From Bacteroidota bacterium (GTDB lineage Bacteria > Bacteroidota > Ignavibacteria > UBA10030 > UBA8401), in the NCBI GenBank assembly GCA_040751955.1, contig JBFMFY010000013.1, positions 548 to 64,547 of the forward strand: 64,000 bases of DNA. Direction: 5' to 3'. The translations under genes and the position numbers were made by a program. The notes under the pieces are model-generated. The model ran no database searches, was not told the DNA's origin, and worked only from the letters and a program-made list of their open reading frames with translations. Positions 1-11,894 of the stretch are shown piece by piece (position 1 is the stretch's first letter; every line of letters begins with the position of its first letter).

Positions 1-2910
1 ACGATCGAACCAGATCGAACCTTGGTCGGAAAAGAGCGGTGGCTTGCGCACTTCAAATTGGTCAATCCCCGGCTGCGCGGATGGATCTGTGCCAAAGAAT
101 GTTGTTTGGTCCTTGTTCATTGAGGATGAATACTCAAGAGTAAATTTCAGATTCGGTTCCTGTTTCACATCACTGGAACTCGATGAAAAAGGAAACGGAA
201 TGGAGAGCGTGTTACTGTTGCTGAAGTAGTAATACCCGATAAACGGTTTCATCACCTCGGAGGGAATGAAACCGCTCTCTCCTTCGTATGCATAAATAAG
301 ACTGTTCGGGGGAAGATTATTCGCCGTAATTACATCGCTCCATTTTACAGGAGCTGAGTAAGGACTTCCAATGATATTCCACGCAAAGGAATTCATTGTT
401 ATCGACACGATGCCGTTGGTCGGCGCTGGAAATTGATACGAACCGTCGATGACAAAGCTATTCTTTTTAATAAGCCAATACCCCTGCCCATATCTCATCG
501 TAGAACTGCTGCTCATTTCGTTCAAATGGTTCGGCGGCGTGCCGCCATTGTCGCTGTAAATCCGATAATCGTTCGGTATGTTGCCTTTAAAAAGATCTCC
601 GACCAAAATCGGAGAAGCAACCGGAATCGTCACCAAACGATAGTCGGTCGATTTTTTCGGTTCTGCAGGGTAGGAAGCCGATACAACGTTTAACACTGTC
701 TGTTGCACGGGAGTAATGAAAGTGGACAATGGCGACCAACTGCTCGAGTTCGTAAGCGAGCGCGCCCTCACTCTCCACTGGTATGTTGTCCCCGGAGCAA
801 GATCCGGAATGGTAATTGCCGACAAGACTGACGTAATAATTTGTCCCCGGATGGAAGAAGAAATAATCGTCCCCACTTCAAGATCGTACGATGTGGCACC
901 GGTAACAGATGACCATGATAACGTGACGCTGGTGTTCAAAAGTTGTGAACCGTTGGAGGGGTTCAAAATGCTCGGAGTTGTCAATGGAACTGAAGGGTTG
1001 AACGTGGTGTAGAATGTCCCATTCTGATTATAGACATTGATAAAAATCCCCGCCGGAGATGTACTGTACAGAGGTGTTTCAAGAAATGAATTGACATCTG
1101 CCGTCATCGAATAGATGACGTTTGTGCTTAAGTTAATTTGAGCTACCATGCCGTGCGATCCTACCACGAGTGCGGTACTTGAATTAAGATACGTTACGCC
1201 GTACCCCCAGTGCGGCAATTGACCGACTTTCGTCCATGTAACACCGCCGTTCGACGTCTTCCATAGCGTCGAATCATTTTTGACTGCGAGTCCCTGTGCT
1301 GAGTTGAGAAAAACAACACCGGAAGTGGAAACAGTCGAATCGAACGCAGTCTTCGCCACGGGATAGAAATTCCACGTATTGCCGTAGTTCGTGGTTTTGA
1401 AGATGCCGCGAATAGTGGATGACCCGCTCGTCAAATTACCTGCCATAAAACCAAGACTGGAGGTAATAAAATGTACTTGCGACGGTGTTGTCGTTCCGAA
1501 GAGATATGTGTTGTTATTCAGCCACGTAACACCACCGTCGGTCGTGCGCAGAAATGCGAGATTGCTTGAAGATGAAATCCCGTCGCCGATAGCGATTCCG
1601 GTAGTGCTGTTATCGAACTTTATATAATTGATGAAGTCCGTAACTGAAGTATTGTTGAATACTGGCAACCATGAAGTCCCCCCATCAGTTGTACGGTAGA
1701 TCTTTCCGGTTCCGGTGCCGGCAAACCCCAATGTTGCACTCGCAAATTCAAGAGCGTACACATGCTCCGTTGTAGAAATACCTGAGCTCATACGGGTCCA
1801 TGTAATCGGCGAACCTGCCGTGATCGTCGTACTCGACTTTGCTACCAATCCGTTATTTCCTGCAATCCATACCGCACCGAATTTTTCAGTGAAATAATTT
1901 ATTTTGCTTGTTGTGATAGCTGAAGAGAGCGTAACCCGATAGAGCGACGGAAGAGGATCAAGTGTGGATGTTGACGACAGAACAGCGAACTGCGTTGAAG
2001 AACTCACATTGCCGTTTCCGGTAAGGACTGTTATCGTATAATTCCCTGCAGCAAGGCTTGGTACTGTTGCAATGATTTGCGTATTACTCCAGCTTGATAT
2101 GCCCGCACTTGTTGTCCCAAATTGCACTCCACCCGCTCCCTGAGTTGCTCCGAAGTTGCTTCCGTTGATCGTCACTGAGGTACCGACAGAGCCGACCGAC
2201 GGTGTAAACGACGAGATACTTGGAGTGGTTGAAGGGGAAAAGGATTTAAAACGTTGGTAGGAGTTATCATTCTCATTTGATTCGATAACAACATTTGTAG
2301 GATCAATCTCCAAGCGAAATGAATGCGATCCGGCAGCAAACTTCCCTATGGGCTTATTGATCCAGACGACACCGTTGTTGCTGGGAATAGAAGATGAGTA
2401 CGTACCTTGAAACTTCAAAACGTTATCGACATACAAATAGCCGTAGAGGGTAACTCCCGAAGGAGAGGGATCGGTTCCATTATTCAGCGCAGCATAGTTG
2501 ATGTACACTGAATCAGTATTAAAAATTGTCGAGACATCCACAGCAGAATTTACAGTTGAAGTATAAGTGTTAGAAACTACAATCGGGAATGACCAGCCTG
2601 TCGGAGTATAATATGTGAGATTGACTGCAGCCGTTTTTTGAAAAGACTCTCGATCTCTTTCGCCGCGCTCCGATTGGTTTGCCAATCCGATTCCTTCCCT
2701 CAAATCTTGTTCAACGATATTTCCGCCTGTTTTGATGGTCATCGGTACTGTTGGCGTTGAAGCAATCACATCTGCACTTCCCGAGGCATCTTTGACAACA
2801 AAAGTCCGCTCAATAATAATTTTACCATTCCCGCTCTGCAACAAAAAAAACGCTCTGCTATCCTGATACGACAACAGCAGCATGATCGTAAGAAGAAAAT
2901 ATTTTTTCAT
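1..2910 (-). CDS. Large secreted multidomain protein; its C-terminal end runs past the window start. It has a signal peptide, an IPT/TIG-like domain, BNR/Ycf48-like 'TTDGGxxW' repeats and an Fn3-like segment.
   Basis: ATG at 2910 (minus strand) gives MKKYFLLTIMLLLSYQDSRA (signal peptide). Hand translation shows KIYRTTDGGTSW and FLRTTDGGVTW BNR-like motifs, a TIG-like SISSFTPSVGSVGTSVTINGSNFG and TLSWSSVTGATSYDLEV. There is no minus-strand stop down to position 1. No other ORF of 60 aa or more is listed in the ORF track in this span. Confidence 0.6.
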   Translation of the reverse strand, partial: MKKYFLLTIMLLLSYQDSRAFFLLQSGNGKIIIERTFVVKDASGSADVIASTPTVPMTIKTGGNIVEQDLREGIGLANQSERGERDRESFQKTAAVNLTYYTPTGWSFPIVVSNTYTSTVNSAVDVSTIFNTDSVYINYAALNNGTDPSPSGVTLYGYLYVDNVLKFQGTYSSSIPSNNGVVWINKPIGKFAAGSHSFRLEIDPTNVVIESNENDNSYQRFKSFSPSTTPSISSFTPSVGSVGTSVTINGSNFGATQGAGGVQFGTTSAGISSWSNTQIIATVPSLAAGNYTITVLTGNGNVSSSTQFAVLSSTSTLDPLPSLYRVTLSSAITTSKINYFTEKFGAVWIAGNNGLVAKSSTTITAGSPITWTRMSSGISTTEHVYALEFASATLGFAGTGTGKIYRTTDGGTSWLPVFNNTSVTDFINYIKFDNSTTGIAIGDGISSSSNLAFLRTTDGGVTWLNNNTYLFGTTTPSQVHFITSSLGFMAGNLTSGSSTIRGIFKTTNYGNTWNFYPVAKTAFDSTVSTSGVVFLNSAQGLAVKNDSTLWKTSNGGVTWTKVGQLPHWGYGVTYLNSSTALVVGSHGMVAQINLSTNVIYSMTADVNSFLETPLYSTSPAGIFINVYNQNGTFYTTFNPSVPLTTPSILNPSNGSQLLNTSVTLSWSSVTGATSYDLEVGTIISSSIRGQIITSVLSAITIPDLAPGTTYQWRVRARSLTNSSSWSPLSTFITPVQQTVLNVVSASYPAEPKKSTDYRLVTIPVASPILVGDLFKGNIPNDYRIYSDNGGTPPNHLNEMSSSSTMRYGQGYWLIKKNSFVIDGSYQFPAPTNGIVSITMNSFAWNIIGSPYSAPVKWSDVITANNLPPNSLIYAYEGESGFIPSEVMKPFIGYYYFSNSNTLSIPFPFSSSSSDVKQEPNLKFTLEYSSSMNKDQTTFFGTDPSAQPGIDQFEVRKPPLFSDQGSIWFDR

Positions 2911-2944: not shown

Positions 2945-3769
2945 TCATTTCACCGCCGACAGTACCGCATGGTCAACAGTCCGCTGATGAAGCGGAATTG
3001 TAAAAAGCCATTGAGAAAGACTTGTTAACGACAATTTCGGCAACATAAGTTCATCACCGACGATCTTCGCATCGCCGATCTCTGCAAACGGGATCTCTTC
3101 CTTCGTCACGACAACAATGAACTCTTCATTCGATGTTTTTTCTTCACCTTCAACTGTTAAATACAGTTCATAGTCCCGCGGAAAAATGAATTTTTTCTTC
3201 GCCTGAATCTTGTTGTTCCGGCTTAATGCGTTGGGGAATGCCATTTGAATCGTGTCGTTCTTCACATGGAAGATCGTGAGAAAGCCATCCTTTGATGATG
3301 TGATTTCCAACTCGACAGGCTCCGATTCGCGGTAGGTTGACCGTTTTGATTTTACCGTGACGGTAAACCCCGGGTCGGTGTTCCCTTCGGGAATAACTAT
3401 GAATGCTTCCAGTTCGGCATCGATCTGGTACTGTACATCCTCTTTGGATGAAGCTTTGGTAAGACGAACCGGATCGGAGATGTCGATGTTCCGTTCCTGA
3501 GTAATGATGCCGCGCGATGTTGCCTCGGTGAATTGGCTGTAGTAATCGTTCATCGCGGTGTTTGATTCTGTCTGCACCCTGAAGGATGATGCAGAAACGA
3601 CGATGCCCGCCTGATTGAGTGCATCAGCGCGGGCACGTTTTACAGCTTCGGTTCGCATTTTTTTAACATCGGTGCCAAATGCCGATGCCTTCCCCTTCAC
3701 CCAACGCCCTTGTTCTTGAGCAAAAAGTGAGGCAGCGATGAGACAGATGGATAGGAACAATCTGATCAT
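2945..3769 (-). CDS. Lipoprotein with an LPP20-like N-terminus and a DUF4384-like C-terminus. This is a typical caspase-associated partner.
   Basis: 274 aa ORF with signal peptide MIRLFLSICLIAASLFAQ. Lies 1 nt after the caspase gene in the same orientation. The KGKASAFGTDVKKMRTEAVKRARADALNQAG N-terminal motif is LPP20-like. Confidence 0.45.
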   Translation of the reverse strand: MIRLFLSICLIAASLFAQEQGRWVKGKASAFGTDVKKMRTEAVKRARADALNQAGIVVSASSFRVQTESNTAMNDYYSQFTEATSRGIITQERNIDISDPVRLTKASSKEDVQYQIDAELEAFIVIPEGNTDPGFTVTVKSKRSTYRESEPVELEITSSKDGFLTIFHVKNDTIQMAFPNALSRNNKIQAKKKFIFPRDYELYLTVEGEEKTSNEEFIVVVTKEEIPFAEIGDAKIVGDELMLPKLSLTSLSQWLFTIPLHQRTVDHAVLSAVK

Positions 3770-3770
3770 A

Positions 3771-5558
3771 TCAATACTTGACCATCACCCTGTTCGGGTC
3801 GCCGTCGAATTCCGGAGTCTGAGTACCGCTGATTCTCCGTGAAACAGCAGTGACGTTCGATGTCACATACTCTTTTAATTCGCCGAGTGTGATCTCTTTA
3901 TTCTTGTCCTTATCCGCTTCGCCGCGCAATCCTGCTGCAAGAAAGTATGTGAACAATCCGGTCTCCGATTCATCGAAACCGAGCGAGGTTTCTTCACCGG
4001 TCGAGGAGTTAATAACGGTGAAATTTTTGTACGAGAGCCACGGCTTCGTTACCTTCAGTTTTATTCCTTTTGCTGCAATCAAATTCTGTTCTTTAATCTG
4101 GGCGGAGGCGCGCGACGCACCGCTGAAGCACGCATCCAGTATCACGGTGACACTTTTGGCGTTCAACTTATTCAGGTTCTCATAGAATCGCTGGATCGGA
4201 TATCCCGACTCTTCGAGAAATTCCTTGTCACCATCCACGGGAAAAAGGAATGTCTGATCCGCCGCTTTGTTCGGCATGCCGTGTCCGGAATAGAACACGT
4301 ACACATCGGTCTCTTTCGGCTTCACATACGTTGCAAGTGTTCCTTTTTCAGGATCAAACAGTTTCTTGAAAAATATCCCCTGCACCTGATTGTTTGTATA
4401 GAAAAGTATCCTGTCCCTGTCGATACCGAATCTGTTTTCGAAATAGCGTTTCATAATCTCCGCATCGTTTGCGGCATACGGCGCTGAGGGAACATTCATA
4501 TAGTTTTCAATCCCAATCACAACGGCGATTGCATTCGGGTTTGATGTCTTCGACGGAGGAACATCTTTAATATCGACATATCCGTCCGTCAGTGCGCTGC
4601 TCTTCTTTCCGGTAAATTGAATTCGTGTCACCTGTTTTTGCTGCGAGGGTCTTGCCTCCACTGAGACCAATTTCGGCTCCGCCGGTTTTTGATCAAGTTG
4701 AATAGGCAACTGGAACGATTTCAGCACGCCGTCTTTCGGTTCGTCTTCCAGTGTCAGAAACACCGGCAGATCACCGGTCGCTTCCACGCGCATTGTAGGG
4801 CTGACGATAAACGAAAGTTCTTTCACATCTCCCGATTTGATATCTCCAATCACTCCCGAGTTTTCAGACAACTTAATATTCTCGGAATTCGTCGCGACGT
4901 TATACTTCACATTGAGCGCACCGGTCAAGCCGACATTCTGAACGACAACACGAACTTTTACGCGCTCCCCTTTCTCAAGCAATCCGTCGTTCTTTTTCGC
5001 ATACAGCCCTTCTCCCCGTTCGATGATTTCAAGACCTGAGAATTGCAGCTTCGGAGGTTCAAATTCTTGCGTGCTTAATTCCAGGTATGCCGTCTCCATA
5101 TCATACCCTTCTTTCTCAACCCCTTTGATCGCAAACTTGCGGACTGCGCTCTTGATCTTTTTGCCGGCAAGGATTTTGAACGTCAATGTCGCTTCCTGCT
5201 TCGGCTGCAGGCGTTTCACATGTTTCTCTTTTTCAATGTAAATGTTCGGATCGGGATTTTCCGATTCTTCCACGAGCGATACCTTCATCTCCTGCGCATC
5301 GCCGATCCCCTTATTCATCAGCTTTACAGTAACAATTGCCGATTCCCGGTTTTCAAGGATACCGTTGTTGTTTTCATCCTTAAAGGAAATCTGAGCATAA
5401 ATATCAGGCGGACCGCCGGCTACCGATTTCGAGTTCTTATCGTCAACCTCGATTTTACCTACTTTAAATTTAACCTGAGCGTCAACTGAATATGCGAGAC
5501 AGACAGCAATCAAGAATATTTTTATTTTTTTCATAGATACCCCCTTCGTAATGCTCAT
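3771..5558 (-). CDS. Secreted caspase-family (peptidase C14) protein. Ig/CARDB-like N-terminal domains precede a C-terminal caspase domain.
   Basis: 595 aa with signal peptide. Catalytic dyad motifs FYSGHG and LDACFSG sit in a segment beginning AVVIGIENY, as in the caspase/metacaspase His-Cys fold. Confidence 0.75.
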   Translation of the reverse strand: MSITKGVSMKKIKIFLIAVCLAYSVDAQVKFKVGKIEVDDKNSKSVAGGPPDIYAQISFKDENNNGILENRESAIVTVKLMNKGIGDAQEMKVSLVEESENPDPNIYIEKEKHVKRLQPKQEATLTFKILAGKKIKSAVRKFAIKGVEKEGYDMETAYLELSTQEFEPPKLQFSGLEIIERGEGLYAKKNDGLLEKGERVKVRVVVQNVGLTGALNVKYNVATNSENIKLSENSGVIGDIKSGDVKELSFIVSPTMRVEATGDLPVFLTLEDEPKDGVLKSFQLPIQLDQKPAEPKLVSVEARPSQQKQVTRIQFTGKKSSALTDGYVDIKDVPPSKTSNPNAIAVVIGIENYMNVPSAPYAANDAEIMKRYFENRFGIDRDRILFYTNNQVQGIFFKKLFDPEKGTLATYVKPKETDVYVFYSGHGMPNKAADQTFLFPVDGDKEFLEESGYPIQRFYENLNKLNAKSVTVILDACFSGASRASAQIKEQNLIAAKGIKLKVTKPWLSYKNFTVINSSTGEETSLGFDESETGLFTYFLAAGLRGEADKDKNKEITLGELKEYVTSNVTAVSRRISGTQTPEFDGDPNRVMVKY

Positions 5559-6055
5559 TGAGGCCTGCTTGTCGGTGGACCGGGCAACGGACCGTCGGCA
5601 GTCGGCTCATCTTTGGAAGATCCGAGTAACAGTACAGCGCCTGCACCAAGTACTGCAGCACCTCCGGTGTACCATACCCAGCTTCCTATTCCTTCGTTTT
5701 TTGAAATCGTGAGTTCAAACTCAATATCATCATACGGCAATCCGCGCGGAAATTGCTTTTTGAACGCCCAGATCACGCGGAGATTGTTCCCGACAAATTT
5801 ACCGTCGCCAACGGCGCCAGAAACATACTCCAAATCATATTTGAAATTCTTATCCGATTCGCGCGTTAAACGAAATGTTACCTCGTACTCTGCATCTTCT
5901 TCATCGCCAATGGGGGTATGGCTGTACGTGATAATAATATTGTCTCCCCCCTGCTGCACGTCGGTGATTGCGTACGGCTTTATATCCTGGCTAAAGCCAT
6001 ACACGCTGCACAGCAGCAGAAGTATCGTACCTCTCTCAAAAATTTTCATAGGCAT
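5555..6055 (-). CDS. Small secreted protein with a C-terminal transmembrane helix and a Pro-rich tail.
   Basis: ORF 5555..6082. The likely start is at an internal Met giving signal peptide MKIFERGTILLLLCSVYGFSQ. The C-terminus WVWYTGGAAVLGAGAVLLLG is hydrophobic. There is a 4-nt ATGA overlap with the caspase gene. Confidence 0.45.
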   Translation of the reverse strand: MPMKIFERGTILLLLCSVYGFSQDIKPYAITDVQQGGDNIIITYSHTPIGDEEDAEYEVTFRLTRESDKNFKYDLEYVSGAVGDGKFVGNNLRVIWAFKKQFPRGLPYDDIEFELTISKNEGIGSWVWYTGGAAVLGAGAVLLLGSSKDEPTADGPLPGPPTSRPQ

Positions 6056-6078
6056 TCCTACCGTTTCAGACATGTTGC

Positions 6079-7203
6079 TCAATTGAGTGCAAACGAAATA
6101 TAAAATATCCCCACTTTCGTCGGCTGTTCAAATTCTCGCTCCATACTCGATGAGGGAAATGAGTTGCTGTTCGTGATTGTAACTTTGTGCTTCGGTTTCG
6201 CGGAAAAATATTTCGCTCCGAATGTCACGGCGTCGGTAAAAGTTAACCCGAACGAATATGCAAATCCCGGTGCAAACGTGTCGGCAGATTCAAGCTTGAC
6301 ATTTGCCGTTTCATAGTTAAGATCCGGCAGATGAATCAATGATATTCCGTAGTCGCCGGATCCAAACAGATATGCAGAATGCGAAAGATTGATCGCGACA
6401 CCGAGACCGAGTGTGAACCACATCAGGTAATGCGCTTCATCTTCCGAAGAAAGAGAGCTGCCGCTTTGATTCCTCATCTCATCGATATTCAATCCGAGAT
6501 AGGCGAATTGAAAGCTCAGGGGCATGTAAAGATTTTCCGACAGATGTATTCTCCCCTCATACCCGGTACCAAATCCACTCTTCGCAAACCCGGCATTCTG
6601 GCCGGTCGTCTCTTTAAATTCTCCGTTCGGTGTTGAGTACGCAAAGTTGAACCAAAAGCCGCCGAGATTGTATCCTTCATTATAACTGTTTGAAGCAGGG
6701 GAAGAATAATTTTGCTCAGAGACGGGTGATGTTACAGTAAAAGCATTGGAATGAACATCCCGCTGGCTTCCCATCTGCACCGCAACAGCATAACTCTTTT
6801 CATCTACATCCGGTACTTTAATGGTAATCCGATCACTCCTCCATGCTTCGATAGCCACTTGCTGCGAACCAAGAAATACCTTGCAATTCTTCGGCTCGCT
6901 CGGAAACATTCCTGTGATGTACACAGATGAACCGACGACACCAGAGGAAGGGGAAACAGATTCAATTACAGGAATATATTCTTTCTCAATCCTGGAAATA
7001 TCGACAAAGTCAAAAAACTCAATGCCTTCCGATGATTCTATGACCACGGTTTTATCGGGAATCTTCTCAATAATCTTTCCGGAAACTACTTTTCCGTTCT
7101 TCAGGTAAAGAACATCGACCTCCTTAGCCTGAGAAAAAAGATCGGTTGCAGAAAGCAACAACAGAGTAATGATTAAAAAGAGCGATTTGTATAGATTTTT
7201 CAT
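6079..7203 (-). CDS. Outer-membrane beta-barrel protein with an N-terminal IPT/TIG-like domain.
   Basis: Internal Met start MKNLYKSLFLIITLLLLSATDLFSQ is a signal peptide. The TIG-like VIESVSPSSGVVGSSVYITG follows. The C-terminal half has alternating amphipathic strands ending IFYISFALN. Confidence 0.55.
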   Translation of the reverse strand: MKNLYKSLFLIITLLLLSATDLFSQAKEVDVLYLKNGKVVSGKIIEKIPDKTVVIESSEGIEFFDFVDISRIEKEYIPVIESVSPSSGVVGSSVYITGMFPSEPKNCKVFLGSQQVAIEAWRSDRITIKVPDVDEKSYAVAVQMGSQRDVHSNAFTVTSPVSEQNYSSPASNSYNEGYNLGGFWFNFAYSTPNGEFKETTGQNAGFAKSGFGTGYEGRIHLSENLYMPLSFQFAYLGLNIDEMRNQSGSSLSSEDEAHYLMWFTLGLGVAINLSHSAYLFGSGDYGISLIHLPDLNYETANVKLESADTFAPGFAYSFGLTFTDAVTFGAKYFSAKPKHKVTITNSNSFPSSSMEREFEQPTKVGIFYISFALN

Positions 7204-7378
7204 AGGCAATGTTCGCAAGTGCAGGAAGGATTCATGACAAGTATAGATATTTGTCCCCAATATTGCAAGTTAGATAGATCGTAAGCCGGGCGCAACAATA
7301 CAATATAACGCTTTTGTACGGTGGAAGTAAAAAGGAGCAATCAAAGTTCAGGATTGTTTTGTCTTATATAAAATGTAA

Positions 7379-9850
7379 TCACACTCTTTGGTAGTTTTTT
7401 GATACCAGTGCATCAGCCAGAGCATTTAATAACATGTGCTGACGAAAAGGTTTTTGCAATAACTGCGCAACTCCAAACTCCTCAGGTTTGAAATCATGAT
7501 ACGAGGGTGAATACCCTGTGGTCGCGATGATTGGTACGTCAGGATTGATCTCCCTCAATCGCCTGATCGCGCCGGGACCGTCCAATACGGGCATGTTCAG
7601 ATCCATGATAACGCATGCTATGGAAGGATTCTTTTTAAAAACTTCAACGGCATCGTTGCCATTGATTGCCGTGACAGCATTGTAATTGTGCATCGTCAAT
7701 GTCTCCTTGGTCAATTCAATAATCGAAACCTCATCGTCAACAATAAGAATTAACTCACCATGTCCCTGCGATATACTTGGTTGAGCTTCGCTGACATGCT
7801 TGGAGATGTCTTCCGGCGATGCAGGAAGAATAATTCTGAATGTCGTCCCTTTTCCTACGGTGCTTTCGACATCGATTGTTCCACCGTGGCTCTTCACAAT
7901 AGTCATGACCGTCGATAACCCAAGCCCGGTCCCTTTCTCAAGAGATTTTGTTGTAAAGAAAGGATCAAATATTTTTCCCTTTATATTGTCAGGTATTCCA
8001 AGACCTGTATCAGAGATTGTAAGACAGACCATATTGCGTTCAACAATATTCTCCGCAGCGATGGTAATCGTTCCTCCCGTTGGCATCGCATCGCGGGCGT
8101 TGATGCACAGGTTAAGTAAAATTTGATGCATCTGTGTGAAATCTCCTGTAATCATGTCAATGTCAGGTGGAACGACCGTGCGAACCGTGATCGATTTGGG
8201 AAATGTTTCCTGAATAATTTTTTTCAACTCATCTATCAGAAATTTGGGATCAACACCCGTCCGTTCGTGTTCCGTCCCTTTTGCAAATGTAAGGACTTGC
8301 CTGACCAACGATACACCACGGCGTGCACTCACTTCCATTATATCGAGAATCCGTACTTTCTCGTGATCAAGCATGCGCCGTAAGCGTTCTATTCCCATCA
8401 CAACCGGTGCAAGAATGTTGTTCAGATCGTGCGCCACACCTCCAACGAGAGTCCCGATGCTTTCCAAACGTTGTGCGCGGAGGAACTGCTTTTCGATTGC
8501 TTTCTTCTCTGTGATGTCGAACGCAATTCCTATCCCCACTCCCTTCCCCTTGTTGTCGATCCTTGCACCGGCAAAATCCAGCCAGCGGCTTTCGCCATTT
8601 TTTCGTTGAATGACAATCTCATATCGGGAAGGAACGTCGGCACCTTGAATCCTGGCTTCTGCTCGTTTCTGTACAAGCTCACGCATATCGGGATGAATGA
8701 GGAGGGAGAACGGCATGCTGAGCAACTCCTCTTTCGAGTACCCTGTGATCACTTCCGTTGCATGGTTCACATATAAAAATTTTTCTTGCTCATAAACAAA
8801 TATGGCTGCGGGCGCAGCTTCGGAAAGTGCACGGAACATCTCTTCGCTTTCACGGAGTTTGTTTTCTGTCTCAACTCTGGAGGAAATATCGGTAGCAACG
8901 TACATTGTACCGATGGACTCTCCTTTGTCGAAAATGTTCGAGATTGCCAAAAGAACGGGAAATGTACTGCCATCGTTTCGACGGTAAACAGATTCTCCGT
9001 GTAGAATTTTTCTCAAATCTGTCGGCTGATCGGACGGCAACTCCTGCACAATAAAATCTGCAGCGCGGTGATTGATCCCGTCAATACCGAGTGATTTGCG
9101 GAATGCTCTGTTTGTGAAACGCAATACCCCGTTCGTATCTGCAACAGCCACTAGATCACTCATGGTCTCAAGGATGACCGACGCGGTCGTTTCCGGTGTC
9201 AGCGACATCAGTTGGTATTTCACTACACCGATACTTACAAATGTTACCGTAGCGGTCGTTGCCACTATTGCAAGCCGAAATACTTCAATTCCCGCCAGAG
9301 GAATGAACGCATCGGTCATCGAACCGATAGAAAGAGGAACCGCAGCGCCAAGAATTATCAACAATGTTTGCGTCACTTCTCTTTTCGATGTAGCAGCACG
9401 CAGTTTTTTCCAGCACCAGCGGAGACCGATAACGAAACAAACTTCAAGCCAAAGAATGAACGGAACATACAGTACCGATGGCGTGAACGTAGAACCCCAC
9501 GAGAGTGCTACATTCTTGGTAACATATCCAGACGCTTGTAAAACACTGATCGTGATCCCGATTCCGTACATTATTTTTACCCATCGTAACGATGAAGCGG
9601 GCTGCTGAGAAAACTCAAAAGTAAAATGGAAGAACACGGCGGGAAGGATGCAAAAACCGATGCCGCCGTACTGCACAATGAGGGAAGTAATTTCGGGATC
9701 GCGAATGATGCGAAGCAGGAATTCCGCACTCCCCCAATACACAAGACACAAAATGGTAAGAGACCACAATTGATTGACACGGGCAGAAGGGTTTTTAGAG
9801 AGGACAAAAACTGCAAAGATGAGGTTCGCCGCAGTTGCAACAAAGGACAT
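7379..9850 (-). CDS. Hybrid sensor histidine kinase with a multi-TM sensor, PAS domains, HisKA, HATPase and a C-terminal receiver.
   Basis: 823 aa with an N-terminal polytopic region and two PAS-like segments. The H-box is VGGVAHDLNNIL. The ATPase G-boxes are DTGLGI and GTGLGL. The C-terminal REC is ILIVDDEVSIIEL...IMDLNMPVLDG. Confidence 0.85.
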   Translation of the reverse strand: MSFVATAANLIFAVFVLSKNPSARVNQLWSLTILCLVYWGSAEFLLRIIRDPEITSLIVQYGGIGFCILPAVFFHFTFEFSQQPASSLRWVKIMYGIGITISVLQASGYVTKNVALSWGSTFTPSVLYVPFILWLEVCFVIGLRWCWKKLRAATSKREVTQTLLIILGAAVPLSIGSMTDAFIPLAGIEVFRLAIVATTATVTFVSIGVVKYQLMSLTPETTASVILETMSDLVAVADTNGVLRFTNRAFRKSLGIDGINHRAADFIVQELPSDQPTDLRKILHGESVYRRNDGSTFPVLLAISNIFDKGESIGTMYVATDISSRVETENKLRESEEMFRALSEAAPAAIFVYEQEKFLYVNHATEVITGYSKEELLSMPFSLLIHPDMRELVQKRAEARIQGADVPSRYEIVIQRKNGESRWLDFAGARIDNKGKGVGIGIAFDITEKKAIEKQFLRAQRLESIGTLVGGVAHDLNNILAPVVMGIERLRRMLDHEKVRILDIMEVSARRGVSLVRQVLTFAKGTEHERTGVDPKFLIDELKKIIQETFPKSITVRTVVPPDIDMITGDFTQMHQILLNLCINARDAMPTGGTITIAAENIVERNMVCLTISDTGLGIPDNIKGKIFDPFFTTKSLEKGTGLGLSTVMTIVKSHGGTIDVESTVGKGTTFRIILPASPEDISKHVSEAQPSISQGHGELILIVDDEVSIIELTKETLTMHNYNAVTAINGNDAVEVFKKNPSIACVIMDLNMPVLDGPGAIRRLREINPDVPIIATTGYSPSYHDFKPEEFGVAQLLQKPFRQHMLLNALADALVSKNYQRV

Positions 9851-10046
9851 TAACGCGTAGATATTGAAATAAAGGACCAGCAGCTCCCCCTTGTCACTAC
9901 AATTATGAGTCTGTCAATAAAATCGCAGTACTTCAGAATTAATATACGCTTGGTCTGACCCCTATGCAAGTTGAATAACGTTGGAATTTTTTAATAGTAA
10001 TTTCATGAAAAAATTTTTAGTATTAAAAAAATCTAATGAGGAGACT

Positions 10047-11894
10047 ATGTCCATATTGTTCCGTTCTGTCCGTTCATTGTGCGCGGCGGTCGTCATGATC
10101 GCTGCTACGCTTCATTCTCAGCAACCGGTGAATGATGTCCATTCTTTCGCCAATCCAAACGAGGTCACCATTACCCACATAGACCTTAACCTTTCGGTCA
10201 ATTTCGATTCAAAAACATTGTCCGGAAAAGCGACGTTGACCATCGACAACAAAAAGAAGACAAAGAAATTGCTGCTCGACACACGCGACCTGACAATTGA
10301 GAAAGTAACTCTCGACGAGAAAGAAACGCCGGCACAATTCTCCCTCGGCGATGAAGTAAAATTCCTCGGCAAACCATTAACAATTACGATCACACCAAAG
10401 ACAAAAAAAGTTCATGTCTATTATTCCACGTCTCCCAACGCCGGAGCGCTGCAATGGCTGGAGCCGTCACAAACGTCGGGAAAACAAAAGCCGTTTCTCT
10501 TTACACAGTCACAAGCGATCCTTGCACGAACGTGGGTTCCGTGCATGGATGGTCCCGGAGTTCGATTCACGTACTCCGCAACGATCCGCACCCGACCTGA
10601 TCTTGTTGCCGTGATGAGCGCGGCAGGAAATTCCGGAACGAAAGCGGCAGATGGCATTTACAAATTTGAAATGAAGCAGCCAGTACCTTCGTACTTGTTG
10701 GCACTCGGCGTTGGTGATCTTGAATTCCGTCCGCTCGGGCATCGCGGCGGAGTGTATGCAGAACCTGCTGTCGTCGAAAAAGCGGCGTATGAATTTGCCG
10801 ATCTTGAAAAGATGATCTCTGCCGCCGAAGAATTGTACGGACCGTACCGCTGGGAACGGTATGACCTGCTTGTGCTGCCGCCGAGCTTTCCGTTCGGCGG
10901 AATGGAAAATCCACGCCTGACCTTTGCAACGCCGACGGTGCTCGCAGGTGATCGCTCGCTTGTCGCACTTGTTGCTCATGAACTTGCACATTCGTGGTCC
11001 GGTAATCTGGTAACGAATGCAACGTGGGACGATTTCTGGCTGAATGAAGGATTCACCGTCTATTTCGAACAACGCATCATGGAAAAACTGTACGGCAGAG
11101 AATATTCCGAAATGCTCGCGACATTGGCGTTGAAAGATTTAAAAGAGACCATCGACGATCTCGGCGTAACAAGTCCCGATACGCATTTGAAACTCAATTT
11201 GAAGGGGCGAGATCCGGATGACGGGATGAACGATATTGCATACAACAAAGGATATTTTTTCCTCCGGCTGTGTGAAGAGACATTCGGTCGAAACGAGTGG
11301 GATACTTTCCTAAAAAAATATTTCAATGAAAATGCATTCAAACCGATGACAACCGAACTTTTCTTAAAGCATCTGAACTCCTATTTTAAAGACAAATCGA
11401 AAAAGGACCGTCTCACTATCAATGCGTGGGTCTATTCTCCGGGATTGCCAGCTAACTGCCCGCAGCCGCAGTCGGCGGAATTTGAAAAAGTATCGGCACA
11501 GATTGACGCATTGAAGAACGGAACTCCCGCCGTCAAACTACAGACTGATGGATGGACAACACATCACTGGCTGTTCTTCATCAGGAATCTTCCCGATACA
11601 TTGAAACTGGAAAGGCTGATCGAACTTGATTACGCATTTTATTTCACTCGCTCCGGCAATCAGGAAATTCTATGCGAGTGGTTCCAGCGCTGTATTAAGG
11701 CAAAATATGAAACAGCATACGGACCGATGCGCAATTACCTGATCAATGTCGGACGCAGGAAGTTGATCAAACCGATCTATGAAGCGCTTGCCAAAACCCC
11801 GGAAGGGAAAGCGTGGGCAAAAGAGGTCTATGCAAAAGCGCGCCCGGGATACCACTCTGTCAGTTACAACACTATTGATGACATCTTAAAGTAA
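10047..11894 (+). CDS. Secreted M1-family zinc aminopeptidase, leukotriene-A4 hydrolase-like.
   Basis: HEXXH zinc motif VAHELAHSWSGNLVT plus the downstream WLNEGF glutamate. The ORF opens at 9981; the Met at 10047 gives signal peptide MSILFRSVRSLCAAVVMIAA. Confidence 0.85.
   Translation: MSILFRSVRSLCAAVVMIAATLHSQQPVNDVHSFANPNEVTITHIDLNLSVNFDSKTLSGKATLTIDNKKKTKKLLLDTRDLTIEKVTLDEKETPAQFSLGDEVKFLGKPLTITITPKTKKVHVYYSTSPNAGALQWLEPSQTSGKQKPFLFTQSQAILARTWVPCMDGPGVRFTYSATIRTRPDLVAVMSAAGNSGTKAADGIYKFEMKQPVPSYLLALGVGDLEFRPLGHRGGVYAEPAVVEKAAYEFADLEKMISAAEELYGPYRWERYDLLVLPPSFPFGGMENPRLTFATPTVLAGDRSLVALVAHELAHSWSGNLVTNATWDDFWLNEGFTVYFEQRIMEKLYGREYSEMLATLALKDLKETIDDLGVTSPDTHLKLNLKGRDPDDGMNDIAYNKGYFFLRLCEETFGRNEWDTFLKKYFNENAFKPMTTELFLKHLNSYFKDKSKKDRLTINAWVYSPGLPANCPQPQSAEFEKVSAQIDALKNGTPAVKLQTDGWTTHHWLFFIRNLPDTLKLERLIELDYAFYFTRSGNQEILCEWFQRCIKAKYETAYGPMRNYLINVGRRKLIKPIYEALAKTPEGKAWAKEVYAKARPGYHSVSYNTIDDILK

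Follow-up and report, generated by a model that had tools for sequence, protein, structure and literature searches.

Why would a bacterium furnish a caspase-like protease with a signal peptide, and what do the genes packed around it do? This question is raised by a locus near one end of the window, as we call the whole 64,000-nucleotide stretch of DNA analyzed here. A sequence-only reading had recognized in it a four-gene operon for a secreted caspase-like protease with an outer-membrane beta-barrel protein, a small transmembrane (TM) protein and a DUF4384-like lipoprotein. Our best explanation, which is held tentatively, is that the conserved cluster encodes an envelope-resident, orthocaspase-type cysteine protease and dedicated partners, which would together perform regulated, limited proteolysis in the envelope.

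Organization and Conservation of the Locus

The four co-directional minus-strand ORFs were confirmed in the ORF list of the window: g1, encoding a TIG protein (6079..7203; 374 amino acids from the ATG at 7203, the ORF reaching a TTG at 7260); g2, encoding a small signal-peptide/TM protein (5555..6049; 164 amino acids, with the start of the NCBI call P0144); g3, encoding a Peptidase_C14 protein (3771..5534; 587 amino acids from 5534 as in NCBI P0001, or 595 from 5558); and g4, encoding a DUF4384 protein (2945..3769; 274 amino acids). A fifth gene of the same strand, g5 (1..2910; more than 970 amino acids, cut at the window edge), had been overlooked. The gaps are 29 nt (g1-g2), 20 nt (g2-g3), 1 nt (g3-g4) and 34 nt (g4-g5). 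The 1-nt gap, which had been noted before, is kept in homologues, but the 4-nt overlaps claimed for g1/g2 and g2/g3 would need upstream starts at TTG 6082 and ATG 5558, which are judged unlikely because both homologues and NCBI calls begin g2 at 6049 and g3 at 5534. Tight packing and retention of the cluster in other genomes are in keeping with a putative operon, and the conserved cluster extends to g5.

Signal peptides had been proposed for g1 to g4, and all of these (4/4) have a hydrophobic N-terminal signal sequence, which is followed by Gln; only g2 has a later TM helix. Gln after the signal peptide fits the Q-rule of Bacteroidetes (PMC5837995). The signal peptides on all four speak for an exported, envelope-localized caspase module and against a cytoplasmic location.

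A hybrid histidine kinase gene (7379..9850, minus strand; 7TM, PAS, HisKA, HATPase and receiver by Pfam) lies 175 nt upstream of g1. Its presence had been described correctly, but the implied link to the module is not supported: the adjacency is found only in the window and in L081, the caspase of which is 94% identical, while other genes lie upstream in L084/L085, L001 and L003. By this comparison, the kinase falls outside the conserved module. Also nearby, at 9981-11894, lies a gene for an M1 aminopeptidase, and the flanking genes at the locus are of a housekeeping type (kinase, M1 peptidase, CMAS, SOUL).

How far is the cluster conserved? All five genes are kept together in relatives with 69-94% caspase identity, those at 69-81% having unrelated genes upstream and the one at 94% having the kinase. 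Beyond this clade, a three-part core consisting of the caspase, a DUF4384 protein and a g2-type domain recurs over phyla of the FCB group. A g4-like or g2-like gene lies within 4 kb (<=4 kb) and on the same strand as the caspase gene in 38 of the 48 loci with full flanks; the remaining 10, with neither partner at the thresholds used, mostly encode caspases of ~800 amino acids with unrecognized N-terminal extensions. In 21 of 80 loci the caspase gene directly adjoins a g4-like gene and in 28 a g2-like one, while 6 show fusion of a g2-like domain. Identity between the Ignavibacteria-like caspases and those of Bacteroidales genomes is 45-48%, falling to about 30% for other FCB phyla. Some genomes have caspase paralogues in tandem (four in L063), and in about 5-6 of the 80 loci, from Bacteroidales and Cyclobacteriaceae, a cluster with DUF4384 and caspase genes opens with a sigma-70 region-2 gene and a gene for a single-TM protein.

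The Caspase Protein

Is g3 a genuine caspase-fold protease? Its minus-strand gene (5534->3771) encodes a signal peptide and then a pair of CARDB/Ig-like beta-sandwiches (about 5411-4689), which a linker joins to the caspase domain (4541-3774). Both Peptidase_C14 (PF00656; E 2.4e-15) and CARDB (E 2e-06) exceed the curated cut-offs of Pfam, and secreted peptidases of myxobacteria also contain a CARDB-like module of this kind (TIGR03900, E 8e-15). In an AF2 model (pLDDT 82.7), the caspase domain is matched best by MALT1 in a Foldseek search (E 2.7e-11, TMt 0.69), followed by metacaspases and caspase-3, so that profile and structure prediction agree on the fold that had been proposed. The catalytic dyad is likewise intact, with His426 in YSGHG (codon 4281..4283, minus strand) and Cys477 in DACFSG (codon 4128..4130, minus strand), both assigned by sequence and alignment; the two residues are invariant in 31 aligned sequences and kept in 205/205 homologues checked, none having a substitution. 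By its sequence, g3 is a Sec/signal-peptidase-I substrate in which two Ig-like (CARDB) domains precede a C-terminal domain of caspase fold that bears an intact His-Cys dyad. Neither a T9SS sorting domain nor a lipid anchor was found in g3 by Pfam or alignment, which leaves it without an obvious way across the outer membrane. Its final site may be the periplasm, the outer-membrane face or vesicles.

The substrate pocket offers a clue to specificity. Asp475, two residues before Cys477, and Asp365 are the predicted acidic residues of the S1 pocket; a profile alignment puts them on the pocket Asp of AtMC9, Candida MCA1 and MALT1. A precedent for such an acidic pair is Asp95/Asp211 of TbMC2 (PMC6426788). 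Because both Asp residues are conserved, g3 is predicted to cut after Arg or Lys. It may also process itself at the conserved basic residue K497, which is part of a flexible linker that follows the catalytic Cys.

Two EF-hand-like loops in g3, which the sequence-only reading did not mention, suggest a dependence on Ca2+. One, DKDKNKEITLGE (residues 549-560; 3879..3914, minus strand), is in the caspase domain between helices 535-547 and 558-575 predicted by DSSP on the AF2 model; D549, T557, E560 and L561 are invariant in the alignment, and the motif is present in 116/120 homologues. The other, DENNNGILENRE (residues 61-72; 5343..5378, minus strand), is in the first CARDB-like domain, with D61, E69 and E72 invariant and N63 and N65 nearly so. 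These assignments are made from sequence pattern and predicted secondary structure, with weak PDB profile matches (E 0.0049 and E 0.7), the better of them, for the loop in the CARDB-like domain, to 8bl6, an Ig protein designed with an EF-hand. Binding of Ca2+ by g3 through these loops is put forward as a prediction.

The Partner Proteins

The caspase gene is encoded back-to-back with those of two proteins that, as judged from their sequences, are a membrane-anchored beta-sandwich protein (g2) and a periplasmic protein with FlgT_N-like and DUF4384 domains (g4). g2 (6049->5555, minus strand) consists of a signal peptide, a beta-sandwich-type domain of ~100 amino acids, a Gly/Ala-rich TM helix (KD19 = 1.58) and a short tail with the invariant motif LPxPPxxRP. 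The helix and the tail (5558-5701) are both conserved, which bears out the description of g2 as a small TM-anchored protein. The beta-sandwich domain matches no Pfam family, and g2 as a whole has no significant match among the Pfam and NCBIfam models, libraries that may not include an EACC1 model. It belongs to a large, unannotated family of 561 representative clusters, which had been missed together with its caspase fusions in other lineages. By hhalign, the g2 domain is homologous to a domain of barrel-fused proteins beside the caspases of Bacteroidales (97.6%, E 3.7e-12) and to the N-terminal part of ~795-amino-acid caspases (97.2%). It is found in three settings: accompanied by a TM helix, joined to a barrel-like region, or within the caspase polypeptide.

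In g4 (3769->2945, minus strand), a type-I signal peptide is followed by an alpha/beta N-terminal domain, then by the DUF4384 beta-sandwich (3337-3098) and lastly by an extension at the C-terminus. The DUF4384 assignment (PF14326) stands, at E 3.7e-11 above the Pfam curated cut-off, but the lipoprotein assignment does not: conservation does not extend to Cys9, and all homologues have a type-I signal-peptidase site, ...A|QE, so that g4, on sequence grounds, is a soluble periplasmic protein. Behind the 'LPP20-like' label are only sub-threshold FlgT_N matches (best E 0.0014, 17/19 homologues). An AF2 model of moderate confidence (pLDDT 73.6) has no significant fold match in the PDB.

The outer members of the cluster, g1 and g5, are conserved only within the window's own clade. 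g1 (7203->6079, minus strand), which is duplicated in the relatives L003 and L038, has a signal peptide, a conserved 'LKNG' beta domain of ~50 amino acids, an IPT/TIG domain and a C-terminal region of ~190 amino acids. Of the earlier description as a TIG-domain outer-membrane beta-barrel, the TIG part is sound (Pfam E 1.8e-08, above the curated cut-off; profile match to domain D of CGTase in the PDB, E 1.4e-09), but a firm barrel call is not: the C-terminal region matches no beta-barrel family among Pfam or PDB profiles. Its period-2 amphipathicity (z = 5.1) and lack of a TM helix make it a plausible candidate for an outer-membrane barrel. g5 (2910-> <1, minus strand) has a signal peptide followed by CARDB, TIG, BNR/Ycf48-like propeller and fn3 domains (Pfam). 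It is kept downstream of g4 in L001, L002, L003, L018, L038 and L084, and its orthologues in L084/L085 and L003 carry a C-terminal T9SS sorting domain (Por_Secre_tail); by these comparisons, g5 belongs to the conserved cluster and its orthologues are T9SS cargo. The large secreted neighbors of the caspase differ in domain make-up between loci.

What Does the Cluster Do?

Could the genes be unrelated neighbors that merely run in the same direction? Conservation of g1 and g5 in one clade only would fit, but gaps of 1-34 nt, a gene order kept in relatives with different flanks, and the recurrence across phyla of caspase genes beside g2-like or g4-like genes, including fusions, make this very improbable. 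A conflict or programmed-death-like module is a more serious, if still unlikely, alternative: g2 would sense envelope damage by a phage, toxin or predator and activate the periplasmic caspase, which would destroy components of the envelope or release an effector at the sacrifice of the cell. Caspases in prokaryotes are a typical part of conflict systems, among them EACC1, in which a 5' single-TM protein with a small-residue-rich helix precedes the caspase (PMC7159879). The Gly-rich helix of g2 with its conserved Pro-rich tail, read as cytoplasmic, the tandem paralogues and the varying secreted neighbors are in keeping with such a role, as is the best NCBIfam match of g3, the EACC1-associated caspase type (E 5.7e-18). 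However, this match scores 65 against a cut-off of 140, PADLOC recognizes the caspase by a generic model only and no partner at all, the flanking genes are not of a defense type, the graded caspase identity resembles long residence more than rapid turnover, and cytoplasmic targets would be out of reach for an exported protease.

Trans-envelope signaling, in which the caspase would act as a periplasmic 'site-1' protease cleaving a DUF4384-bearing regulator or anti-sigma-type protein to switch gene expression, as in the Craspase/Csx30/ECF sigma factor system, seems rather improbable to us. The C-terminal domain of some Csx30 is DUF4384 (bioRxiv 10.1101/2022.08.17.504292), the invariant g2 tail could pass a signal inwards, and some clusters are headed by sigma-70 region-2 and single-TM genes; these are, however, a minority (about 6/80), no sigma or anti-sigma gene is present in the cluster of the window or its clade, and the adjoining kinase is not conserved. 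Less probable again is a nutritional or degradative role, in which g3 would leave the cell, perhaps in vesicles, and break down proteins outside it, the neighboring genes being those of surface proteins with only a loose relation to it. Bacteroidetes metacaspases have been suggested to join in polymer breakdown (PMC4933709), and the nearby M1 aminopeptidase gene and the T9SS-cargo orthologues of g5 are compatible with it. Yet g3 has no evident way past the outer membrane, and enzymes of the caspase fold cut at specific sites, unlike bulk proteases. Moreover, dedicated partners, with gene fusions in other lineages, favor a regulated complex over a degradative protease.

In the regulated envelope proteolysis that we prefer, g2 would tether or scaffold the g3 protease at a membrane, and g4 could serve as its adaptor, regulator or first substrate through DUF4384, a domain that some other proteins combine with caspases and further proteases; these partner roles are read solely from gene adjacency and fusions. 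The output would be limited, regulated cleavage of envelope or surface proteins rather than bulk digestion, for which the candidate targets in the window's clade are the co-conserved g1, with its TIG domain and possible barrel, and g5, whose orthologues are T9SS cargo.

Comparison with Known Systems

The enzyme type is already known, whereas the exported set of partners around the caspase is undescribed. With orthocaspases and metacaspases (MEROPS C14, clan CD), g3 shares the above-threshold PF00656 match, the YSGHG/DACFSG dyad, the caspase-hemoglobinase fold, two acidic pocket Asp predicting Arg/Lys specificity and a likely Ca2+ requirement. It differs in its cleavable signal peptide and predicted export, in a caspase domain placed C-terminally behind two CARDB/Ig-like domains, in an EF-hand-type loop within that domain and in its clustering with dedicated envelope partners. 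As far as is known, characterized orthocaspases are cytoplasmic, and none in the literature cited here (cyanobacterial ones, e.g. the Synechocystis pseudo-orthocaspase SyOC) has a context of the g3 type. MALT1, the best structural match, likewise has an S1 pocket lined by Asp and accessory domains of the Ig-like type, but it is a eukaryotic cytoplasmic signaling protein of about 15% sequence identity with its Ig domains arranged differently.

The EACC1-caspase system (Kaur et al. 2020, PMC7159879) resembles the present one in its small 5' gene with one conserved small-residue-rich TM helix, its caspase gene directly after and the sub-cut-off NCBIfam match described above. Unlike EACC1, g2 carries a signal peptide and a 100-amino-acid extracytoplasmic domain; the EACC1 caspase is N-terminal with variable C-terminal effectors, whereas that of g3 is C-terminal and exported, and the system is in the FCB group, not actinobacteria. 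Craspase (type III-E CRISPR: Csx29 CHAT protease, Csx30, Csx31, RpoE) also couples a caspase-like protease to a DUF4384-capable partner or substrate, and some related FCB loci include a sigma-70-type factor, although the window cluster does not; there are no CRISPR, Cas7-11 or TPR-CHAT genes here, and g3 is of family C14 rather than CHAT and predicted to be periplasmic rather than cytoplasmic. Finally, caspases are fused to DUF4384 in cyanobacteria and alphaproteobacteria, including 23 cyanobacterial orthocaspases and trypsin/pseudo-orthocaspase/DUF4384 proteins (PMC8283722, PMC6426788). There the two domains, in a functional link like that supposed here, share one polypeptide, whereas in the present cluster DUF4384 belongs to a secreted protein of its own that begins with a FlgT_N-like domain and whose gene follows that of the caspase after 1 nt.

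Organization of the Gene Cluster

Four consecutive ORFs occupy the minus strand from 7260 to 2945, as a sequence-only reading had proposed: a TIG-domain protein (g1, 6079-7203), a small transmembrane (TM) protein (g2, 5555-6049), a caspase (g3, 3771-5534) and a DUF4384 protein (g4, 2945-3769). A fifth gene absent from that reading (g5) starts at 2910 on the same strand, 34 nt past g4, and runs off the left window edge with more than 970 codons. The genes had been thought to overlap or abut by 4, 4 and 1 nt; the 1-nt spacer between g3 and g4 stands, but the two 4-nt overlaps do not, as they need a TTG at 6082 and an ATG at 5558. Homologues and NCBI gene calls place both starts later, that of g2 (MKIFERG) at 6049 on the minus strand (P0144, 164 aa, a 100% match on the same contig) and that of g3 (MKKIKIF) at 5534 on the minus strand (P0001, 587 aa), and thus the spacers from g1 through g5 are 29, 20, 1 and 34 nt. 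Similarly short spacers are found in relatives, and the spacing is tight enough to be compatible with a single transcript for the cluster. Neither paralogues of g1-g5 elsewhere in the 64-kb window nor tRNA genes within it were found.

The Caspase

Within peptidase family C14, g3 is of the orthocaspase/metacaspase kind and shows every defining feature that can be tested. Its residues 344-585 match Peptidase_C14 (PF00656) with 57.3 bits against a curated cut-off of 21.4 (E 2.4e-15), and a CARDB match (E 2e-06, Pfam) points to a module for which the secreted myxobacterial peptidases of TIGR03900 are a further match (E 8e-15). The family search covered 5.8 billion proteins and returned 613 hits; most have the architecture of ~587 aa, others being N-terminally extended to ~795 aa, or to ~880 aa with WD40 repeats. 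In an AlphaFold2 (AF2) model (pLDDT 82.7), two beta-sandwiches (~53-163 and 171-283) precede an alpha/beta domain (343-594). The best Foldseek match in the PDB is the caspase domain of MALT1 (E 2.7e-11, TMt 0.69), followed by AtMC9, the yeast (Yca1) and Candida metacaspases and caspase-3 (range E 1e-11 to 1e-7), so that the model has the caspase-hemoglobinase fold and the two N-terminal beta-sandwich domains that had been expected. At the sequence level, PDB searches with g3 or with its full-length profile gave no caspase match; this required a profile of the caspase domain alone, which aligns to AtMC9 (E 1.8e-04), Candida MCA1 and MALT1.

The His/Cys dyad claimed for g3 is in place, with H426 held by YSGHG (codons 4292-4278, minus strand) and C477 by DACFSG (codons 4136-4119, minus strand). 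Both residues are invariant in an alignment of 31 homologues, down to 42% identity, and a motif scan, with the sequences it missed checked by alignment, found the dyad in 120/120 database hits and 85/85 locus ORFs. No homologue examined has a substituted dyad, which the sequence-only reading had named as grounds for its refutation. In the caspase-domain alignment, the nearly invariant D365 falls on the pocket Asp of "C-I-N-D" and the invariant D475 on the Asp of D-x-C. In TbMC2, Asp95 and Asp211 are the acidic S1-pocket residues accommodating a basic P1 residue (PMC6426788), and as D365 and D475 match both of them, Arg/Lys specificity is predicted for g3. A conserved N-L-x-x-x-K/R-G segment containing K497 lies in a low-confidence loop of the model, 20 residues past the catalytic Cys, and K497 is plausible as a candidate autoprocessing site.

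Two EF-hand-like loops are encoded within g3. The loop DENNNGILENRE (residues 61-72, window 5343-5378, minus strand) lies between strands of the first Ig-like domain and fits D-x-N-x-N-G-x-L-x-x-x-E, with D61, E69 and E72 invariant; in a PDB profile search, the g3 profile matches a designed EF-hand Ig protein. The loop DKDKNKEITLGE (residues 549-560, window 3879-3914, minus strand) lies within the caspase domain, in a helix-loop-helix; its D549, T557, E560 and L561 do not vary in the 31-sequence alignment, and the pattern is present in 116 of 120 homologues. In the AF2 model, helices 535-547 and 558-575 flank it and its positions 7-9 form a short strand, an arrangement with EF-hand geometry. 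We found no description of an EF-hand within a C14 domain in the literature searched.

Export

Signal peptides had been claimed on all four proteins, and the N-termini of g1-g5 each have a basic n-region and a hydrophobic stretch of at least 10 residues; they are thus present on each of the four and also on g5. The predicted cleavage sites expose a Gln (...LFS/QA, ...GFS/QD, ...VDA/QV, ...LFA/QE, the slash marking cleavage), which is the typical pattern of Bacteroidetes signal-peptidase-I substrates (PMC5837995). A second hydrophobic segment occurs only in g2, and g3 has no T9SS sorting domain. Lipoprotein status was considered for g2, g3 and g4 and ruled out, because the Cys inside the signal peptide is not conserved among homologues. 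In g4, which had been called a lipoprotein, Cys9 is present in only a few sequences and a type-I site (...A/QE) is found throughout the homologues.

Two Partner Proteins

The earlier description of g2 as a small TM protein was borne out by its signal peptide and a second hydrophobic helix, the Gly/Ala-rich VWYTGGAAVLGAGAVLLLG (KD19 1.58). This helix and the C-terminal tail (5558-5701, minus strand) end in an LPxPPxxRP motif at the extreme C-terminus, in which L157, P158, P160, P161, R164 and P165 are invariant among 17 sequences. The motif fits no known sorting signal, because it stands past the TM helix rather than before it, and its conservation suggests a docking or signaling role for the tail, which is presumably cytoplasmic. 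No NCBIfam family covers g2, and its sole Pfam match is sub-threshold and unrelated (TcaA_5th, 19 bits versus 23.6). An exhaustive HMMER search places it in a family of 561 representative clusters at E <= 1e-3 (301 at E <= 1e-10), whose members are mostly 150-185 aa long with the layout of g2.

The g2-type domain is also found in other settings. In proteins of 350-630 aa, PEGA domains precede a g2-type module, and the giants P0170 (5686 aa), P0196 (2595 aa) and P0198 (3982 aa) hold the g2-type beta-sandwich 10-14 times in tandem; from these tandem-repeat giants and PEGA proteins, the domain is taken to be a general extracytoplasmic building block without a Pfam entry. In Bacteroidales, a barrel-like region of ~180 aa replaces the TM helix (hhalign against the g2 family 97.6%, E 3.7e-12). 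The caspases of ~795 aa open with a g2-type domain, for which hhalign gives 97.2% (E 2.8e-11) in comparison with the barrel-fused family and 80% (E 1.4e-05) in comparison with the g2 family. This homology is visible by profiles only; when g2 was compared by pairwise BLAST with the proteins that carry the domain fused to a barrel or to the caspase, no match was significant.

g4 had been described as an LPP20/DUF4384-like lipoprotein. Its DUF4384 part holds: residues 145-224 match PF14326 with 43.4 bits against a curated cut-off of 27 (E 3.7e-11), and the domain is above threshold in all 19 homologues. The lipoprotein part does not, as g4 has no conserved-Cys lipobox. No LPP20 profile matches g4, while its N-terminal domain gives a sub-threshold FlgT_N match (16.5 bits versus 28.8) that recurs in 17 of the 19 homologues (best E 0.0014). 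g4 is a DUF4384 protein and, lacking the lipobox Cys, not an LPP20-type lipoprotein. Its AF2 model (pLDDT 73.6) starts with a beta-alpha-beta-beta domain, continues into a beta-sandwich and closes with an extension at the C-terminus; for this model, Foldseek against the PDB gave generic beta-sandwich matches only (TM scores 0.2-0.3) and no informative neighbor. Residues 59-85 (window 3514-3594, minus strand) are among the most conserved segments of the family (S61, R64, Q66, E68, D75-Y77 and F80-A83), yet their pLDDT is below 50; this segment may bind a partner, or act as bait for one, and become ordered only on contact with it.

Conservation of the Neighborhood

Iterated profiles of the window proteins were used to scan ORFs of 80 genome loci encoding g3 relatives, from Bacteroidota, Ignavibacteriae, Chlorobiota, Cloacimonadota, Marinimicrobia, Gemmatimonadota, Zixibacteria, Kryptoniota and Latescibacteria. 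Within the clade of the window (loci L001, L002, L003 and L084/L085), the genes follow the order g1-g2-g3-g4-g5, except that L018 is missing g1 and L038 is rearranged. Outside it, g1 and g5 drop out, but the links of the caspase to g4-like and g2-like partners persist. The caspase gene is directly adjoined by a g4-like DUF4384 gene in 21 of the 80 loci and by a g2-like gene in 28, and in six a g2-like domain lies within the caspase protein itself. Where at least 3 kb was available on each side (48 loci), one or both partners lie within 4 kb on the same strand in 38. In the literature, 23 cyanobacterial proteins join DUF4384 to an orthocaspase (PMC8283722), and in alphaproteobacteria the domain is joined to trypsin/pseudo-orthocaspase proteins (PMC6426788). 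Conserved adjacency together with gene fusion ties both partners to the caspase.

The hybrid histidine kinase (7379-9850, minus strand; 7TM, PAS, HisKA, HATPase and receiver) does lie next to the cluster, with 118 nt between its end and the longest g1 ORF downstream, but it is not a conserved neighbor. The genes 5' of the cluster differ by locus (SOUL and CMAS in L084, others in L001 and L003), and the kinase and the M1 peptidase beyond it are kept only in L081, whose caspase is 94% identical to g3. Therefore, the kinase was rejected as part of the module. The M1-family aminopeptidase gene (9981-11894, plus strand; HELAHSW...WLNEGF) is divergently oriented and adjoins the kinase; its L081 orthologue has Peptidase_M1 and Leuk-A4-hydro_C, the kinase-M1 pair being syntenic in this closest relative only.

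Other loci show variations of their own. Caspase paralogues stand in tandem in L044, L060, L070 and L063, the last, from Zixibacteria, having four in a row. Larger versions of the cluster occur in Bacteroidales and Cyclobacteriaceae (L013, L025, L026, L029, L031 and, in part, L024). A sigma-70 region-2 gene and a single-TM gene resembling an anti-sigma factor head the cluster in L013, L025, L026 and L031 (L024 in part), and in L029 such genes lie downstream of the caspase. The larger clusters continue with a ~490-aa protein without Pfam match, whose C-terminus has a Cys/His/Asp pattern like that of transglutaminase-fold cysteine proteases (DCEDRA...PDHV...CDPT), and with Lcl_C/fn3 proteins downstream.

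Clade-Specific Genes

g1 had been called a TIG-domain outer-membrane beta-barrel. The TIG domain is sound (IPT/TIG, Pfam E 1.8e-08, also supported by a PDB profile search) and is preceded by a highly conserved "LKNG" domain of ~50 aa, but the barrel is matched by no Pfam family or solved barrel. For the C-terminal ~190 residues, Pfam searches with seven members gave no barrel match, the PDB gave only FecA (E 1.4), NCBIfam gave a TDE1717 barrel below its cut-off (E 0.012), and hhalign showed no relationship to the Bacteroidales barrel region (7% probability). The region lacks a TM helix (maximum KD19 1.14), and its period-2 hydrophobic moment reaches z = 5.1 relative to shuffles. As to an aromatic C-terminal beta-signal, some paralogues end in ...F, but the window protein in ...SFALN. 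An outer-membrane barrel is thus plausible but unproven. In L081, gene calling gives a pair of ORFs, of 118 and 233 aa, for the g1 orthologue (6253-7383). The cause could be a frameshift, an error of assembly or a true separation of the barrel-like region from the N-terminal domains.

Besides its signal peptide, g5 has CARDB, TIG, a BNR/Ycf48-like propeller and fn3, and its orthologues in L084/L085, L003 and L018 end in Por_Secre_tail (PF18962), a T9SS sorting domain. In other phyla, the large secreted neighbor of the caspase differs in domains (FG-GAP, PMP repeats, sortilin/BNR).

Possible Roles and Known Systems

Bacterial caspase homologues have mostly been treated as cytoplasmic death or defence proteases. 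Judging from its signal peptides, the g3 family is exported, yet its catalytic center is fully intact, and it is widespread in Bacteroidota, Ignavibacteria-like bacteria, Cloacimonadota, Gemmatimonadota and related phyla, usually accompanied by one or both of two uncharacterized partners. How might such an enzyme work with its partners? In the joint reading that we adopt tentatively, its chances falling a little short of even, g3 would be a Ca2+-binding, Arg/Lys-directed envelope protease acting in the periplasm or at a membrane face. g2 would hold or position it, as an inner-membrane anchor in this clade and through a barrel in Bacteroidales, and g4 would serve as adaptor, regulator or first substrate. 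The output would be site-specific processing of envelope or surface proteins, for which g1 and the putative T9SS cargo g5 are local candidates. A bolder version, which we regard as quite unlikely, is a trans-envelope FCB caspase switch in which g2 would report the state of the membrane or envelope and a Ca2+-gated periplasmic g3 would cleave its DUF4384 partner or surface cargo, resulting in envelope remodeling, signaling or altruistic lysis.

Several other explanations compete with the joint reading. Chance juxtaposition of the genes is disfavored because the neighborhood is conserved, and a degradative secreted protease is a weak candidate because g3 has no evident route over the outer membrane. 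Hints of a trans-envelope signaling protease come from the genes for a sigma-70 region-2 and a single-TM protein that head the cluster in five or six loci, and from analogy with Csx30. The window has neither of these genes. The remaining rival is a conflict or suicide module akin to the EACC1-caspase pair, in which, as here, the caspase has a 5' single-TM partner rich in small residues (PMC7159879). Against it, g3 scores 65.2 bits where the cut-off of NCBIfam NF047832 is 140, the architecture is inverted relative to EACC1-caspase, PADLOC recognizes no partner, and the flanking genes are not defence-like.

What would these proteins add to present knowledge? The C14 protease family and the link between caspases and DUF4384 are already known. 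The exported location, the unannotated g2 domain family with three architectures, the putative embedded EF-hand and the T9SS-linked clade-specific cluster would be new; our literature search found no description of an exported caspase with these partners, and DUF4384 turned up in just seven papers, each time in passing. One partner carries a domain repeatedly fused to proteases and kinases, and the other belongs to an unannotated domain family. If one serves as tether and the other as regulator or substrate, the system would give a tractable handle on DUF4384 function, on caspase-fold enzymes beyond the cytoplasm, and on whether a C14 protease can be controlled in a new way, by Ca2+ gating through an embedded EF-hand. 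If g3 is merely a housekeeping envelope protease, the gain would be better annotation of several hundred hypothetical protein clusters.

Among known systems, membership in an anti-phage defence system covered by PADLOC was rejected, as g3 matches only the generic caspase model (E 1.8e-08) and g1, g2, g4 and g5 are unmatched. EACC1-caspase membership was likewise rejected: the caspase misses the NF047832 cut-off, and g2 has a signal peptide and a 100-aa domain and matches no NCBIfam family. Should the improbable trans-envelope switch prove true, it would be an extracytoplasmic counterpart of the cytoplasmic EACC1-caspase and Craspase-Csx30 systems. In the EACC1-caspase system the caspase is N-terminal and is followed by variable C-terminal effectors (PMC7159879), whereas the caspase domain of g3 is C-terminal.
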